DNA of 64,000 nucleotides from a virus (taxonomy: Duplodnaviria; Caudoviricetes), in the IMG/VR virus record IMGVR_UViG_3300043105_000102, positions 32,001 to 96,000 of that record; one strand, written 5' to 3'. Below the pieces are notes generated by a model. That model searched no databases and had not been told where the DNA came from. It saw only the letters and a program-made list of their open reading frames with translations. Each line of letters opens with the position of its first letter. Within the stretch, counting starts at the first letter, position 1. A program made the translations under genes and the position numbers. Below, in pieces: positions 30,432 through 53,490 of this stretch.

Positions 30432-30491
30432 GGAGCGATTTTATTAAGGAAAAGAAAGAGGTATTCCATATGAAAGGAGGTTGAATTTCAT

Positions 30492-32249
30492 ATGGAATAT
30501 CAACTAAGAACATCATTGCTCCCACAAGAAAAGAATTATACAGTGGTTGAACGGGTGTTCGCAAATAGAGGTATTGAACCTAAAAACATTAGTCATTACC
30601 TTCACACAACCGATAATGATATATTAGACCCTAGTTTAATAACTAATATCAAAGAGGGGGCGGCCATGCTAGTCCGCCATATCCAACAGAAAGATAAAAC
30701 TATGGTAATTGTTGATTCTGATGCTGATGGATTTACAAGTTCGGCCTTTTTATTGAACTATCTTAATTGCCTTTTTCCGAGTTTTATAAAAGATAATGTG
30801 GAATATGCCCTCCACGAGGAAAAGACCCACGGTATTATTCTTGACGCTATTACAGAGGATACTAAGCTAGTTATTGTGCCGGACGCCAGTAGTAATGAAT
30901 ACGAAATTCATAAGCAGCTTAAAGATAGAGGTTGCGATGTTTTATGTATTGATCATCATCAAGCTCCAAAGGTTTCAGAGTATGCTTGTGTAATAAATAA
31001 TCAATTATGTGATTATCCCACAAAATCTTTATCAGGCGTTGGAATGGTTTATAAGTTTTGTAGTTATCTGGATGAATTGTTGGAAACTAATTATGCCGAT
31101 AACTTTTTAGATTTGGCTGCTGTTGGAATCTTGGCCGATATGATGTCCTTAAAGGATTATGAGACAAAGCATATCATAAATAAAGGTCTTAATAATGTTC
31201 AGAATCCTTTTTTGAAGGAAATCTGTGACGCCCAAGCCTATTCTATTAGCAGGGCAGGAGGGTTATGCCCTTTTGCAGTTAGCTTTTATATAGCCCCCCA
31301 AATTAACGCCACAACTAGAGTGGGGACTATGGAAGAAAAGATTCTACTTTTTGAATCCATGCTAGACTTTAAGGGCTATGAAGAAATTCCTTCGACCAAA
31401 AGAGGATGCAAAGGAAAATTTGAAACAAAGGCCGCCCAAGCTTGCCGCAACTGTACTAAGATTAAAAGGCGCCAATCTGAAGTAGTCGAATCTAGTTTGG
31501 ATATTATAGAAAACATCATAGAAGAAAAGAATTTAGCAGAGAACAAAGTTATTGCTGTTAAATTACAAAAAGAACAAGTAGTAAATAGAAGTCTAACTGG
31601 CTTAATCGCCAACCAGCTTATGGCTAAATATAAACATCCTATTTTAATTCTCCTTAAAGGAGAAGATGGAACTTGGTCAGGGTCTGGTAGAGGGTTTGAC
31701 ACAGTAGGCTTTAACAATTTTAGGGATTTTATCGAACAGAGTGGTTTAGCCGAATATAGTCAAGGACATCCAGATGCTTTTGGAACTTCCTTTACAGAAG
31801 AAAACTTTAAAGCTTTTATAGAATACTCAAATAAGGTTTTAAAAGATTGCGCCTTTTTACCGTATCTTACTGTAGATTTTATTTGGGATTCTAATAACTT
31901 CTCTGGGAAAGATATTATAGAATTGGCTAAATTAAATTGTATCTGGGGGCAAGGGCTTGAGAAACCTTATATAATGATAAGGGACATTCATGTTACCCCT
32001 GATTCAGTAAATTTACTATCTAGAGATAAAAACCCCACGCTAAAGATTACTCTTAATAATGGAGTTAGTCTTATAAAATTCAAGTCGTCCGAGGAAGAAT
32101 ACCAGTCTTTGCTGGCTAGTTCTGACCTTGGAAGTGTAGACATTAATGTTATTGGAACTTGTAAAATTAATGAATGGAATGGTATTATCAGTCCGCAAAT
32201 GGAAATCGAACAATATGAAATTGTAAGAAAAGTTGATTATTTCTTTTAA
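30492..32249 (+). CDS. recJ: RecJ-like ssDNA exonuclease
   Basis: DSDADG, HG, DHH, LSGVG, ADMM, P.INA..R, GSGR, GH..AFG. Confidence 0.92.
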   Translation: MEYQLRTSLLPQEKNYTVVERVFANRGIEPKNISHYLHTTDNDILDPSLITNIKEGAAMLVRHIQQKDKTMVIVDSDADGFTSSAFLLNYLNCLFPSFIKDNVEYALHEEKTHGIILDAITEDTKLVIVPDASSNEYEIHKQLKDRGCDVLCIDHHQAPKVSEYACVINNQLCDYPTKSLSGVGMVYKFCSYLDELLETNYADNFLDLAAVGILADMMSLKDYETKHIINKGLNNVQNPFLKEICDAQAYSISRAGGLCPFAVSFYIAPQINATTRVGTMEEKILLFESMLDFKGYEEIPSTKRGCKGKFETKAAQACRNCTKIKRRQSEVVESSLDIIENIIEEKNLAENKVIAVKLQKEQVVNRSLTGLIANQLMAKYKHPILILLKGEDGTWSGSGRGFDTVGFNNFRDFIEQSGLAEYSQGHPDAFGTSFTEENFKAFIEYSNKVLKDCAFLPYLTVDFIWDSNNFSGKDIIELAKLNCIWGQGLEKPYIMIRDIHVTPDSVNLLSRDKNPTLKITLNNGVSLIKFKSSEEEYQSLLASSDLGSVDINVIGTCKINEWNGIISPQMEIEQYEIVRKVDYFF

Positions 32250-33620: not shown

Positions 33621-33860
33621 ATGTTTAAAGAAAACTCCGCAGAAGAGCTAACTGAGGAACGTAAACTTAAAGAATATATATATGATAGTTTGTGCTTAAG
33701 ATATAAGATTGCCAGAGAAGCACAGGCAAGACATGAGGTAAATACTCATTATAATGGCAATATAAAAACAGCCATAGAAGCTGCTAAAAGAGATGAAATG
33801 AGATTTTATCAAATTTTGGATGATGTAATTTTTAATATGGAAGGAGGAAATAAAATTTGA
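33621..33860 (+). CDS. Hypothetical protein
   Basis: AAGGA RBS after the promoter. Confidence 0.6.
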   Translation: MFKENSAEELTEERKLKEYIYDSLCLRYKIAREAQARHEVNTHYNGNIKTAIEAAKRDEMRFYQILDDVIFNMEGGNKI

Positions 33861-35382
33861 TTCTTACTAATAAGCAAGAAGAAGGTTTGAAGATTATTGT
33901 AGCCAGATACAAAGCAGGAGAAAAATATACTGTTGTATCTGGCTACGCTTAAAAGCTGGTGTCGGTAAAAGCGTTTTAGTTAGATTTGCTGTTGAAGCTT
34001 TGGGGGTGCCAGAAGATACAGTAGCTTATGCTACATATACGGGCAAGGCCGCCGAAGTTTTACGCAAAAAGGGTAATAAGGGGGCTATCACACTTCATAA
34101 GCTTCTATATAACTGCTATCCTCGTAAAGATGGCGGATTTTATAGAGAACCTAAAAAATATTTGGACTATAAAGTTGTTGTTGCTGACGAGTGTAGTATG
34201 ATCCCTAAGACTATGGTAGACCTTCTTTTGAAGCATAATGTTTATGTATTATTCTTAGGTGACCCGTTTTAAAGCACTGGGACGGGCTAAAATAATCTAA
34301 TTGCGGGAACCTCCTGAGAGTTCACTCTACTAACTTATTATAGTGATATGAATAAGGGCAAAGGGTAATGCCGGAGATTTAAGTAAAAACGAGTGAAATT
34401 GGACAATCCGCAGCTAAGTTTCTAAAAGGTTTTAGAAAAAAGTTCAACGACTATCGAAAAGTATTTAATTACTGAGTAGAGTACACTGCAAGTTTATGGC
34501 AGTGGAAATGGTTATCCTAGAAGATATAGTCTGCTCTCACGAGAAATTGTGAGCTTGGATATTCCAAGAGATAAGGTTTGCGCCCTTATCTAAACAGGGA
34601 GGCAGCTCCCACCAATAAATAAAGATGAAGCAAATGACCTTCTAGAGCATCCTCATATCTTTCTTGATGAAGTATTGCGCCAAGCTGCTGACTCAGAAAT
34701 TATTCGAATGACTATGAAAATCCGTAACAATGAGCCTATTCCTTATTTCAAAGGAACTGATGTTATGGTAATTCCAAAAGCAGAGTTAGTAAACTCTTGT
34801 TATACTTGGGCCGATCAAGTATTGGTCGCCACGAATAGGACTAGAAAATCTATCAACACTCAAGTTAGAAAGATGAAGGGACTCAGTGGGTTGCCGCAAG
34901 ATGGAGACAAGATTATCTGTTTGTCAAACTATTGGGACGATATTTCTATGACCGGAGATGCCCTAGTAAATGGCACTACTGGAACTGTACGCAACCCGGT
35001 AGGAAGAGTAAAGAAGGTTCCTTATTTCTTTAATATTCCCGAAAATTCCATTCATAGCATCCAATTCGACTTTGAAACAGAAGAAGGCTCTTGTTTCAGT
35101 GGCATTGAAATGGATGAAAAATTAATTCAAACTGGAAGAAAGGCTGTTGAAGATTATAGTGTTGCTTATCGTTTGAAAAGCTACGAAAAGAAAACCGGAG
35201 AAGAGTTTATTCCCAAAGAGTTTGACTATGGGTATGCTATTACGACTCATAAAGCCCAAGGTAGTTCTTGGCCAAAAGTACTAGTAATAGAAGAGCATTT
35301 TCCAACTATTCAAGAGGAACACGCCCGCCATTTGTATACTAGCTGTACAAGAGCTTCTTCTCGGTTAGTTTTGGTACGTTAA
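33857..35382 (+). CDS. Dda/RecD-like SF1B helicase; segments 33857-33949, 33958-34269, 34603-35382 (394 aa if the 8-nt gap is skipped and the intron spliced)
   Basis: AGGAGG RBS plus TTG; LT.KQ, GYA[8 nt]GVGKS, TGKAA, TLHKLLY, DECSM, GDPF|QLPP, RQ, YAITTHKAQGS, YT..TRA. Confidence 0.85.
34270..34602 (+). mobile_element. Group I intron, ORF-less (333 nt), in the Dda-like helicase (boundaries could both shift 1 nt left)
   Basis: CCCGUUU pairs with GGACGGG; AATTGCGGGAA, AATCCGCAGC, TTCAACGACTA, AAGATATAGTC; terminal G. Confidence 0.9.
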
Positions 35383-35963: not shown

Positions 35964-35993
35964 AGTAATAGTAAAGGGGATGATTAACACATT

Positions 35994-38900
35994 ATGAAGA
36001 TACGAAACTACCCCGGTAGCCTTCATAATCACTAGATACTGATTATAGTAATTTGCGACTTCGTGACTCTATTAACCGATATGATAAGCTTATTGATTAT
36101 GCTATTGAGTTAGGCCACGAAGTTATTGCTTTTACAGAGCATGAATCAGTTTCTAATGCGGTAAAAATCCAAAAGTATTACAAGAAGATTAAGTCCGACC
36201 ATCCCGATTTTAAAGTAATTCTGGGTAATGAGATTTATCTATGCCGAAATGGATTAAATAATGAAAATTTTGTTTCGGGAGAAGATAGATATTGGCACTT
36301 TATACTTTTGGCGAAAGATGCTATTGGCCATCAGCAAATAAGAGAAATTTCTACTAGAGCGTGGAAGCGTTCCTATAAGGCTAGGGGAATGCGGCGAGTC
36401 CCCACTTATTATCAAGATCTTGAAGAAATAATTGGGGCTAATCCCGGCCATGTTATTGGGTCTAGTAGTTGCCTTGGCGGCTATTTACCTTTTTTAATTC
36501 TTAAATATAGAGATAGCAGCAGCGACCAACTCTTATGGCTAGAAAGAATTAACCAATGGACTAATAGTATAGAACAGATTTTCGGAAAAGGAAACTTCTT
36601 TTTAGAGCTTCAGCCCTCAGAATCAAAGGAACAAACTTATGTAAATGAGTTTTTGGTTTCTTTTTCCTCTCAGGCAAATATTCCATATATTATCACAACG
36701 GATTGAAAAATAATGCTTATGAAGATTATTAAAGGAATAGAAGGAGGTGAAAAAATGCGTAGTTTAAAGTCTTTTTCGGCAGAAGAAAAACAGCAAATTT
36801 TGAACGATAAAAGAGAAAACCCATTCAAAAGATATTAGATAAAATCTATAGTAACGTACCCTTTTTTGCTTAAAGCGAAAATACATAAGCATTATAAATG
36901 ACAGTCGAGTTAAGCTGTGAAGCTTAATGTTAATCCCCGCTAACCCAGATTGCAATGGGGTGTGAGCCAATGGCTTGCTAACGGTTGAACTCCTGCAAAG
37001 GACAATCCCGTGCTAAATTACTGTAAAGTATAAATGTGTAACGACTAGTTCGGAGGAACGTAGAATGGAGATGCTACCATTCGAAAGACGGGGCATCTGT
37101 TTGAAGCAGCAGATGAAAATATAGTCTATTCTTTATAGCAATATAAAGTATTAAAGAGTCATTATGCTAGAAGGGAAGATAGACCAATTCATAAGGCCTA
37201 TTTGAATGCAGAAGATGGCGATAGAGAAGTTGATTCTTTTTATGCAACGACTTATATGATGGATACAGAGGAACTAGAGAGCCATTTAAGCTTAACAGAC
37301 GAACAACTAGAAATAGCTTATCAGAATATTAGGAAAATAAAAGAAATGTGTTCTGATTATAGCCTGTTAAAGCCTTTGAAGATTCCTGAGTTAGTTTGGA
37401 AAGAGCCATCTTATTTAATTAGTCCAAGCACTTATTATAAACAGATTCCTTATCTTCAAACCTTTGTTGAATCAGAGTATCGTGGAGATAATCTATTGGC
37501 ACAACATGTTGCAGATAGATTATCTTGGGATACAACACTTCAAAATCAAAAAACTTATGATGCACTAGATGAATGTTTAGAGATGACTTGGAAATCATCT
37601 TTAGTCAATAAAACACATTGGAGTGCCTACTATTTAAATCTACAAAAAATAATTGATATTGTCTGGGATGCTGGAAGTCTGGTGGGGCCATCAAGAGGTT
37701 CTGGTACTGGGTTAGTAACTAAGCTCAGTTAAAAATTCGTGAACTATATTGCTCATAGGTGTCTAGTATAATTACTAGGCTAACGGTTCAGAAAGCAGTA
37801 ATGTTATTATGAGTAAGGGAACCTAAGTCTTTAACAAAGATAAGGAAATACCGTGTCAAGTTTGCTGATTATATTAAGCAAAAAGATGTAGAGACTATCG
37901 AAAGGTGTAATAGCTGAGTAGAGTAAAGTGGAAGATGAGCTACCACTTGAAGCGCGAATTACTTATATATTAAGTAAAGAGATAGTCCATGCTATATAGA
38001 AATATATAGTGTTCAGTTGTCTTACTATATGTATTGAATATTATACAGATAAACGCATTGCGTGAAACTACCAAGACAAAAAGTTGGAGATTTCTTAATC
38101 CTAGTCGAGTATCAGTTTTGGATATTGATGTAGATATAGAAGGCTCAAAGCGTGAAAAAGTTTTACAAGCTCTAAGAGATAATTATGGAGAAGATTATGT
38201 AGCTAACGTTATTACTTTTGGCGTTGAAAAGTCCAAATCAGCTATCCTTACTGGTGCAAGAGGACTAGGCATGGACAATAATGACGCACAGTATTTTTCT
38301 TCTTTAATTCCTTCTGACAGAGGTATCACTAGAACTTTACACCAATGTTATTATGGAGATAAAGAAAATGGTTTTGCGCCCATACCTCTATTTGTCAAGG
38401 AAATGGACGAACATCCAGACTTATGGAACGTGGCGCAAAAGATTGAAGGATTGATTTGCCAGATGGGTATTCACGCTGGGGGAGTTATTTTCGTAGATGA
38501 ACCTTTTACCAACTCCACTGGCTTAATGCGGGCGACAGATGGTACAATTATAACAGCTTATGACCTCCATGATTCAGAAGATGTGAGTCAACGAAAGTTA
38601 AGGCTCCTAAATGCTTAATCACTTATCAGTGATGTTATATAGGCTCTTAGAAATAAGGTAAGTAAAAAATACCTATATGGCACCGGGGAAACCTAAGTCA
38701 AAAATGATATGGCAATCCCGGACTAAATTGGGTAGCTTCCAGCTATCCATAAATGTCTATCGACTATCCCTCGGAAGGGGAGTAGAATTACTATTGATAC
38801 GTAATTCAAAACAGCATTCTCTTTAAAAGAGTAAGATATAGTCAGTACCATTGGAAACAATGGAACAATACGCTTATCAAGTACGACCTATTATCGGTTG

Positions 38901-51694: not shown

Positions 51695-53490
51695 TTATCC
51701 GTTGCACCCAAAAGATAGAGGATAACCAGTATAAGGATTGGCTACGGGGTATGCAGGAACGGGGCAGGGCTTAAGCTCATTCACCAGATAAGCATTCTGA
51801 GCTTGCTGAGAAATCTGGAAATTAGCAGTCTGCAATTGACTATCCTTGGCGGCCAGACGATCACGCAAGTCTTGCATTGTGTTAGCATTGATTAAAGCTC
51901 TAGTTTGTTCGGCTTCATTGTGAATAGCGGCAGTAATATCGCAAGTATTACGGTAATTCTCTGCTCTAACGCTATCTATATTGCGGTTTGTGTCACCAAT
52001 TTGTTATCTTATAGGCTCTTTATCCTATAACTCATATAGTTTCCTATATGTTCAGACTATATCTTCTTCCCTAATTATTATTAGGGAGTTCGGCACTCGT
52101 GTTGGTATTATTGTTTGTCATAACTCAACCATTAGTCGTTGAACCTTCTAATTACTTTTACTGACTTTCATTAGCTTGGCTGCTGATTAGCATACTTACA
52201 AATGTAAACTTAGCTTTCCAGCAATTCACCGAATTATTTTTCTAATAGTTACCTATTAGGCTGCCATGATTGTTTAGCAGCAAGACTGCATCGCATAACG
52301 GCTATCCGCAATATTAGAGTTTACAGTATCGAAGCCTTGAGAGACAGCACTAAATCCTGTGCATAAATCACGCTGTAAACTGCCAAAGTTGTTCAGGAGA
52401 GTAGTGTTGTTGGAATAAAATCCATCACACAAACCTTGCTGAATGCCACGAACGCCATTTTCAACTTGCTGGAAGTTCATGTCTTGGCAAAGCTCTCCTC
52501 TGGTCAGGGCGCCTTGAGTTGAAGCATTGTTATTGCCCCAACCATTTCCTCCCCATCCGCCGCCCATAAAGACGAACAGGAAAAGTATAATTATCCCATT
52601 GCTGTTATCCTACTGGCTTTTTGTCCAGTAGCTCTTATAGTTTATAGTTCCTATAAGTTCAGCGCACCTTTTCTACTCCAATATTAGAGTAGTCGCGGCC
52701 TCTTGGAAAAACTAAATAGTTCTGAGTTATTAAAAAACTCTGCTTTATATCTATTGCAGAAATGAAAAAGTATAATTATGTACTTTACTGCGGCTGCTGT
52801 TTAAAACTCTAGTAATAGCACGTTTGTTAATGTTTAAAAGCGCACTAGCTTCAGAAGTACTCATAAAAACAAATTTTTCACCTGTAGTTAAATTTGTTGC
52901 TAAAATCGGTTTACTCTTTATCTGGTCTTTTTCTTTTGTCCATTCAAGATTTTCGACTTTATTGTTAAGTGGATTTCCATCTTTGTGCTTAACATAAGGG
53001 AGAATATTTGGATTATCAAGAAAATATAAGGCCACAAGTCGATGGATTCTAAAAGTCTTTTTAAGCCCATCTTGGCAAAAGGTATACGTTAAATAACCTT
53101 CGTTGTTCATGTGCGGTTCCAAAATTTTCCCATTTTTAACATTTTTGATATTACCACAGTTTGAAACAGCATAATTATTGAACGCATCAATAATTATATA
53201 CTTTTCCATTTCGTATACTCCTTTAATTGACTTTATATAGTAGTCTTAAAGGACTACAACATATTCAGTATGTCTGCGCGTTGCCCCTGACTGTAGTTCT
53301 TACAGCCTTCGGTTCTGATTCCCATCTCAGGGTTCCAGCTTAATTCCGCGATTATTCGATACAAGTTACCTTGTAAAGTGGCAAATATTTATACTTACCA
53401 AGCTCCCATGCCATCGCCAAATCCCTCACGATTGGCACCAGAAGCAGTTGCAATGTCGGCTAAAGAATAGCCACTGTTTTGATTGAACAT
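51695..53490 (-). CDS. Cassette gene C: membrane-segment/coiled-coil Cys-Cys-Cys protein; exons 53490-53397, 52596-52276, 51996-51695 (238 aa)
   Basis: AAGGAGG RBS; splicing gives GMGAW|WIIILFLFVF-GGGWGG and MQSCC|CDTNRNID; C-terminal PCPVPAYPVANPY. Confidence 0.85.
51997..52275 (-). mobile_element. Group I intron, ORF-less (279 nt), gene C-I2
   Basis: GCUGCU pairs with GGCAGC; minus-strand AATTGCTGGAA, AATCAGCAGCC, TTCAACGACTA, AAGATATAGTC; T|GT restores Cys. Confidence 0.9.
52597..53396 (-). mobile_element. Group I intron (800 nt), gene C-I1, with an HNH gene
   Basis: UGGU pairs with GCCA; AATTAAGCTGGAACCC, AATCAGAACC, CAACGCGCA/AAGGTGCGCT; T|GG restores Trp. Confidence 0.85.
52751..53209 (-). 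CDS. Intron-encoded NUMOD4-HNH endonuclease (possibly degenerate)
   Basis: Y.VSN.G, GYL, IHRLVA..F, HKDGN..NN...NLEW, F.S..EA...L. Confidence 0.85.
   Translation of the reverse strand: MEKYIIIDAFNNYAVSNCGNIKNVKNGKILEPHMNNEGYLTYTFCQDGLKKTFRIHRLVALYFLDNPNILPYVKHKDGNPLNNKVENLEWTKEKDQIKSKPILATNLTTGEKFVFMSTSEASALLNINKRAITRVLNSSRSKVHNYTFSFLQ

Follow-up and report, generated by a model that had tools for sequence, protein, structure and literature searches.

Within the window, the whole 64,000-nt stretch of DNA analyzed here, a Dda/RecD-like superfamily 1 helicase gene (SF1B) opens on the plus strand at TTG 33857, and the strong ribosome binding site originally predicted for it can be read directly from the sequence as the Shine–Dalgarno motif GGAGG (33843–33847), which ends 9 nt before the start codon. 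All further parts of the gene lie on the same strand. The first coding segment (33857–33949; 31 codons), which is collinear with the N-termini of uninterrupted homologs, runs to S-G-Y-A, so that frame 0 closes with GGC TAC GCT (33941–33949) and is followed directly by TAA (33950–33952). This stop and the next 5 nt make up an 8-nt gap, TAAAAGCT (33950–33957), recognized from the sequence and from comparison with relatives, past which the +2 frame reads GGT GTC GGT AAA AGC (GVGKS). The second coding segment (33958–34269; 104 codons, frame +2) extends from GVGKS to LGDPF and matches the Pfam families AAA_19 and AAA_30. It is separated from the last exon by a group I intron between GDPF and QLPP (34270–34602; Rfam RF00028 at 34259–34553, 67 bits), the limits of which were set by homolog collinearity; the last exon starts with QLPP (34603–35382; 259 codons plus the stop) and matches UvrD_C_2. 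The AAA_30/AAA_19 core with its Walker A motif and the UvrD_C_2 C-terminal domain, found by Pfam across both window segments, identify the product as an SF1B Dda/RecD-like enzyme, and its homologs carry Dda-like or RecD-like helicase annotation. The original prediction of a stop-containing 8-nt gap inside the Walker A motif, with all helicase motifs 3′ of it intact, is therefore borne out. The output of gene callers for this helicase consists of the 31-residue stub and truncated fragments. The intron site (GDPF/QLPP) coincides with the split point of the Bacillus phage BpSp helicase, and a second group I intron at Rfam gathering score lies on the minus strand of the window at 52033–52285.

Hairpins can give rise to template-switch artefacts, and the gap lies beside an inverted repeat. 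An assembly or sequencing artefact, which had been listed among the alternatives, is nevertheless of negligible probability, since a contig produced by a second assembler (Logan, run SRR11793810; L006) is 100% identical to the window over 1801 nt spanning the gap, homologous gaps with diverged sequence are present in contigs from many unrelated samples and runs, and an artefact would not alter codon usage in the manner described below.

Omission of the 8 nt yields GYAGVGKS, as predicted, in exact collinearity with the uninterrupted homologs L002 and L003 (393 residues; ...ISGYAGTGKS) and with database homologs, among which GYAGTGKS occurs in 164 of 186 full-length proteins and the 8-residue loop shows no length variation. 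In the nearest non-identical relative (L009; 60% identity) the same position reads GCC, then TGAAATCC, then GGC GTA GGA AAA TCA; the stop is retained, as TGA for TAA, and GVGKS is retained through synonymous changes. Truncated database proteins led to three further gapped cases (7, 8, and 6 nt), an IUPAC pattern scan of IMG/VR to another 13 gapped loci, and a protein-based scan to 80 loci, five of them gapped, giving a compared set of 18 distinct gapped and 56 distinct ungapped helicase sites. The gap is 5 nt long in three of the 18, 6 nt in five, 7 nt in three, and 8 nt in seven; it is placed directly after the Ala codon of S/A-G-Y-A in every one, and its first codon is always a stop (TAA in 13, TAG in three, and TGA in two). 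Removal of the gap leaves two coding segments that join to give exactly GYAG[VT]GKS, matching the 56 sites at which the same position is empty. No stop-less insertion at the gap site was seen in the protein-based sample, where the sole other interruption of the P-loop is an intein. The insertion is thus not private to the window genome. Exact-pattern scans of IMG/VR and the JGI metagenomes for alleles nearly identical to this one, whether they contain the 8 nt or not, detected none once the genome's own records were excluded, and in GenBank phages the matches of a DNA search were confined to the intron. Among the cultured GenBank phages matched, none has the gap; the nearest, found by protein search, are ∼36% identical and ungapped. 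The helicase of phage AR9 is encoded as one CDS, and that of BpSp is split solely at the intron site. A lost group I intron, the 5′ stub of which had been offered as an alternative origin of the gap, does not fit these data, as the gap is conserved, possesses its own hairpin, and shows no intron features.

That hairpin, which was absent from the original prediction, is the conserved structure at the locus. Its 14-bp stem is formed by perfect pairing of GTAGCCAGATACAA (33899–33912, plus strand), which encodes V-A-R-Y-K, with TTGTATCTGGCTAC (33933–33946), the latter running to the final base of the Tyr codon, one base 5′ of the GCT codon for Ala31 (33947–33949), which is termed the take-off codon here. 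The surrounding 80 nt (33896–33975) fold at −31 kcal/mol (z = −5.7). A hairpin with its 3′ arm ending at base −1 of the take-off codon was found in 18/18 gapped and 0/56 ungapped loci, the mean terminal paired run being 10.3 in the former versus 0.9 in the latter, and the 60 nt upstream have a mean folding energy of −19.4 versus −6.8 kcal/mol (Mann–Whitney p = 5e-10). When 17 gapped loci are aligned, pairing extends to 85% of cells, as opposed to 20–45% with the partners slid against each other, and the closing pair shows covariation (A-U in eight loci, G-C in six). The apparent uniformity of the 3′ arm is inflated by ascertainment, in that a DNA pattern with TCTGGCTAY fixed served to find, or to find again, 16 of the 18 gapped loci; however, L059 and L061, which came from protein similarity, differ in that stretch, the equivalent hairpin of L059 is made from different codons, and the structure is shared by all loci recovered through protein similarity (the window, L009–L012, L059, and L061).

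Codon choice at the take-off position is likewise distinctive. The third base of this codon was left free in the DNA search pattern, yet the codon is GCC or GCT in 18/18 gapped loci compared with 17/56 ungapped ones (Fisher p = 6e-8), the Ala codon of the latter being GCA in 26, GCT in 15, GCG in 13, and GCC in two. The proposed landing site is the last triplet of the gap, in the window a second GCT (33955–33957, within TAAAAGCT, plus strand). Of 16 distinct gaps, eight end in GCN and the others in ACT, TCC, or GTN, each of these one mismatch from GCN; the triplet agrees with the G or the C of GCN at position 1 or 2 in 16/16, and both last-triplet tests gave p of about 2e-6. All of these triplets encode small residues. 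Other signals known from recoding sites were sought in the gapped loci. No take-off stem-loop including the stop was found, the gap being too short and the flank pairings weak and not conserved; the ACGCU/GGUGU stem that had been suggested to loop out the 8 nt in the window can be drawn but is one of these weak pairings, and it is not conserved across the gapped family. A conserved internal Shine–Dalgarno sequence of the gene 60 type and a slippery heptamer were also absent, and no nascent-peptide signal was evident, the N-terminal 31 residues being alike in gapped and ungapped homologs. A dedicated take-off tRNA in the form of a phage tRNA-Ala(GGC) was considered and rejected, since none occurred among 30 tRNA loci (a subset of the tRNA matches) read in four other genomes with the gap. 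The window genome itself carries, outside the window, a cluster of 12 phage tRNA genes (C1:24060–27659; L106) that includes tRNA-Ala(GGC), an isoacceptor for GCY. Two other gapped genomes (those of L013 and L019) encode a tRNA with anticodon CUA, an amber suppressor labeled tRNA-Pyl by ARAGORN; their helicase gaps open with TAA, not TAG.

The genes that carry the gap are functional rather than dead or erroneous. Their downstream frames span 359–372 codons and are intact wherever the contig permits. Between gapped genes, dN/dS is 0.10–0.28 downstream and 0.11–0.38 in the 30 upstream codons, with synonymous sites near saturation, while ungapped pairs give 0.075–0.09 downstream; purifying selection hence acts on both sides of the gap, and in the N-terminal 31 codons it reaches the last codon. 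The maintenance of ∼360 open codons over such distances in DNA of 37% G+C indicates that the gene is not decaying. Dda-type helicases are often non-essential, and several of the gapped genes sit on long branches, so that an inactivating indel left by endonuclease damage or local duplication and tolerated by virtue of other helicases might be envisaged. Such a pseudogene is nonetheless highly improbable given frames of this length in more than 12 diverged lineages at the selection and saturation values above, given that the stop, the hairpin, and GCY are conserved, unlike the features of a decaying gene, and given that the same device recurs in the gene for the replicative polymerase. The particular duplication that had been suggested, TAAAAGC at 33966–33972, is a real repeat but constitutes the G-K-S codons.

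The second occurrence lies in dnaE, on the plus strand of the window (35991–36049), where ATG 35994 opens 13 codons ending in L-H-N-H. A 9-bp hairpin (35991–36029), the arms of which are ATTATGAAG (35991–35999) and CTTCATAAT (36021–36029), includes this ATG and ends at the base before a CAC codon (His13; 36030–36032), the putative take-off codon. CAC is followed by a 5-nt gap, TAGAT (36033–36037), delimited by homolog comparison (take-off codon and gap together, 36030–36037). If decoding resumes after TAGAT, ACT (36038) GAT TAT AGT gives T-D-Y-S and the PHP motif HxH[ST]xYS is restored. The dnaE gene of L009 has CAT at this point, an 11-nt gap opening with TAG, and the same hairpin, so that both dnaE gaps (2/2) open with a stop; 33 other dnaE homologs are ungapped and are without the terminal helix. 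The presumed landing triplets, GAT for CAC in the window and TAT for CAT in L009, match CAY at positions 2–3.

A genome-wide search for other cassettes (a hairpin ending 3 nt before a stop, then an open frame) returned many chance matches, of which the two strongest extra candidates fail: one is a hairpin that sequesters the ribosome binding site at the start of a recJ-like gene and the other is internal to an ordinary ORF. Within the window genome, no cassettes hold up apart from those in the helicase gene and in dnaE. The recJ-like hairpin, a perfect 16-bp structure at 30460–30501 of the window that covers the Shine–Dalgarno sequence and the ATG, looks like a translation-initiation control element rather than a coding gap.

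On the basis of the conserved position, the hairpin, and the codon bias, the gap is probably a non-coding stretch that ribosomes cross by programmed short translational bypass. In the window helicase, the ribosome would translate 31 codons, unwinding the 14-bp hairpin of coding sequence, and would then pause when TAA enters the A site, the P site being occupied by peptidyl-tRNA-Ala paired to GCT. At that point the hairpin's 3′ arm would lie just behind the P site, where its re-zipping could favor forward movement of the mRNA; peptidyl-tRNA would quit GCT, the ribosome would slide 8 nt, and the tRNA would re-pair with the second GCT. Decoding would restart at GGT to give one polypeptide with a canonical GYAGVGKS P-loop. 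Across the family, tRNA-Ala would leave GCY at an A-site stop, slide 5–8 nt, re-pair with a cognate or near-cognate triplet, and allow decoding to restart at GGN, and dnaE would be served by the same device. Pairing of mRNA behind the ribosome has been proposed as a driver of forward gene 60 bypassing (bioRxiv 10.1101/2024.12.09.627546; reviewed in PMC5009743), and refolding upstream hairpins have been found to stimulate forward (+1) shifts (PMC3639245); the fixed position of the hairpin fits both ideas. Against such a hop must be counted that half of the gaps have no cognate landing triplet and that in dnaE it would take place after 13 codons only, making peptidyl-tRNA drop-off a risk. The minimal programmed hop of the original prediction is strongly preferred by the comparative evidence over an intron stub, a duplication, or an assembly error, although two of its details, the matched GCT/GCT pair and the flank stem, are seen in the window and do not extend to the whole family.

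The net shift needed differs with gap length (+2, +1, or 0), and this bears on whether another recoding event might generate a P-loop with extra residues, by restart at the last triplet (adding one A, T, V, or S), by a +1, +2, or −1 shift (adding two or three residues, e.g., GYA-KA-GVGKS), or, in the in-frame cases, by stop readthrough. Read in the downstream frame, the gap encodes L-K-A in the window and L-K-S in L009, with synonymous Leu codons, AKAGVGKS still conforms to [AG]x4GK[ST], and both the small residues specified by the last triplets and the capacity of upstream hairpins for +1 stimulation would suit such an event. It is nevertheless unlikely, as every gap length would demand its own shift at sites with no slippery sequence, as the loop length of GYAGTGKS is invariant in the database homologs, and as HxH[ST]xYS of dnaE would be disrupted. 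Furthermore, the in-frame 6-nt gaps of five lineages each still open with a stop and all three stop codons are used, so that no single frameshift or suppressor tRNA covers the family.

Two further explanations, each very improbable, dispense with recoding. In the first, an event at the level of RNA (editing, processing and religation, or transcriptional slippage) removes or bypasses the gap and the mRNA is continuous, in which case the hairpin could be a recognition element for an RNA enzyme. To our knowledge, no mechanism excises 5–11 nt in bacteria or phages; the A runs (3–4 A) are too short for slippage and are missing in many gaps (e.g., TAGGTG and TAACT), and the requirement for a stop together with the tRNA-like match of the last triplet to the take-off codon points to the ribosome. 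In the second, the gene is split and yields two products, a peptide of 31 residues and a C-terminal protein with its own initiation, which either assemble or make do without the N-terminal part. Split topoisomerase and NrdA halves that work in T4-like phages (bioRxiv 10.1101/2022.08.31.505936) provide a precedent, and the gap of L012 ends in GTG, a possible start. Most gaps, however, contain neither a start codon nor a Shine–Dalgarno sequence, and no ATG, GTG, or TTG opens the window +2 frame before TTG 34000, which is already past the P-loop. The motif would also be cut in its middle, and the selection that reaches the last of the 31 N-terminal codons argues against a dispensable peptide.

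A programmed bypass is also linked to a homing endonuclease in what is the best reading of the comparative data. A free-standing HNH endonuclease gene (∼175 residues; PHROG 2255, E = 1e-22 to 4e-24) is located directly upstream of the helicase start in 7/18 gapped and 0/56 ungapped loci (Fisher p = 2e-5), abutting or overlapping the start of the gapped gene (L059:973–1497, L010:922–1440, L012:394–936, L061:134–214, and in L016, L017, and L018). In L017 and L018 its open frame comprises 96 codons compared with 167 residues aligned by tblastn, and this copy may be broken. A nuclease-like DUF5889/DUF2726 gene downstream of L015 and L019 was discounted, since it neighbors gapped and ungapped helicases alike and so is unlinked. 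The gapped L059, which has the HNH gene, and the ungapped L051, which does not, share 85–94% identity in the gene body, diverge over the first 100–200 nt, and are unrelated upstream. In L029 (358–2601), L030, and L064, a LAGLIDADG intein of ∼355 residues, ending ...THN|T and recognized by its LAGLIDADG motifs, occupies the same P-loop after GTGK, 12 nt 3′ of the gap site, which indicates that helicase P-loop DNA is a homing target. The gap therefore probably exists, by analogy with the T4 system described below, because it interrupts the DNA sequence targeted by a homing endonuclease while leaving the protein unchanged. An HNH gene of the PHROG 2255 family is absent from the window genome, which makes this rationale indirect there; that genome would carry the cassette but not the nuclease. 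Eleven changes of gap state are needed on the helicase tree, at least six of them forced by well-supported branches, a patchy distribution that fits a mobile module or one repeatedly gained and lost.

A close known system is that of T4 gene 60, where the bypass insert shields the DNA from the HNH endonuclease MobA and persists after endonuclease loss, and which was termed unique in a 2022 preprint (Manning and Atkins; bioRxiv 10.1101/2022.08.31.505936). The present cassettes share with gene 60 a coding gap that interrupts a conserved enzyme motif in a gene for replication, a stop immediately 3′ of the take-off codon, a proposed landing triplet similar to that codon, and a 5′ stem-loop; there is also a link to a free-standing HNH gene, the cassette persists in genomes without the endonuclease, and its distribution on the gene tree is patchy. 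The gaps here are 5–11 nt rather than 50 nt and have no take-off stem-loop within them and no conserved mini-Shine–Dalgarno, a cognate landing triplet is found in half of the cases, and two genes of one genome are affected. Whereas the 5′ stem-loop of T4 is not conserved between clades, the 5′ hairpin here is strictly conserved and much stronger, and it directly adjoins the take-off codon. The gene, the phage group, and the position of the endonuclease (here upstream of the whole gene) differ as well, and a sequence relationship between the two cassettes is not expected.

The nearest known case is the terminase of Streptomyces phage Hau3, in which 7–10-nt inserts open with the rare codon UUA, a 5′ stem-loop has been proposed, and bypassing was confirmed by mass spectrometry in E. 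coli with UAA replacing UUA (PMC10732093). In both systems, short frame-breaking inserts separate residues that adjoin each other in homologs, the gap opens with a codon that is slow to be decoded in the A site, a 5′ stem-loop is the proposed stimulator, and a phage can have more than one site. In Hau3, the trigger is a rare sense codon tied to host physiology and the inserts occur in 3 of 100 genes, whereas the candidate cassettes described here always have a true stop, occupy at least 18 lineages with the hairpin at a fixed position, and are linked to an endonuclease. In synthetic E. coli stop-hops, which are summarized in later accounts as artificial constructs of low efficiency (Weiss et al., 1987, cited in PMC5009743 and PMC10732093), peptidyl-tRNA similarly passes over the stop next to its codon and lands on a matched codon a few nucleotides further on. 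A 2016 review anticipated shorter counterparts of known bypass elements and knew of no natural in-frame stop-hop (PMC5009743), for which the 6-nt in-frame gaps would be candidates. The byp elements of Magnusiomyces capitatus mitochondria, as outlined in the same review, are 27–55 nt, are triggered by an unused codon, and are apparently context-independent, with no adjacent hairpin in that outline (PMC5009743); they resemble the present cassettes in that many short inserts are tolerated by bypassing with take-off/landing pairs that are often imperfect (two out of three), and differ from these phage gaps of 5–11 nt with an abutting hairpin. No earlier description of a hairpin–codon–stop–gap cassette was found in full-text literature searches.

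Efficient natural bypassing has so far been known almost solely from T4 gene 60 and its homologs, the yeast mitochondrial byps, and one Streptomyces phage candidate. If the bypass proposed here is correct, it would add many natural variants with 5–11-nt gaps, three stop codons, and cognate and near-cognate landing triplets, governed by one dominant, easily mutated stimulator (the abutting 5′ hairpin). Genes of this type are currently called split ORFs or pseudogenes in phage and metagenome data. Somewhat better than evenly balanced is the broader proposition that minimal bypass cassettes, each consisting of a coding hairpin, a sense codon, a stop, and 2–8 further nucleotides, are widespread and linked to homing endonucleases, and that, with hairpin refolding as the motor, they place endonuclease-proof insertions in the most conserved motifs of several replication genes; in that case the cassette would provide a portable element of ∼60 nt for direct tests of the mechanics of ribosome sliding. 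The cassette also suggests that recoding may serve phages as a form of immunity against homing endonucleases and inteins.
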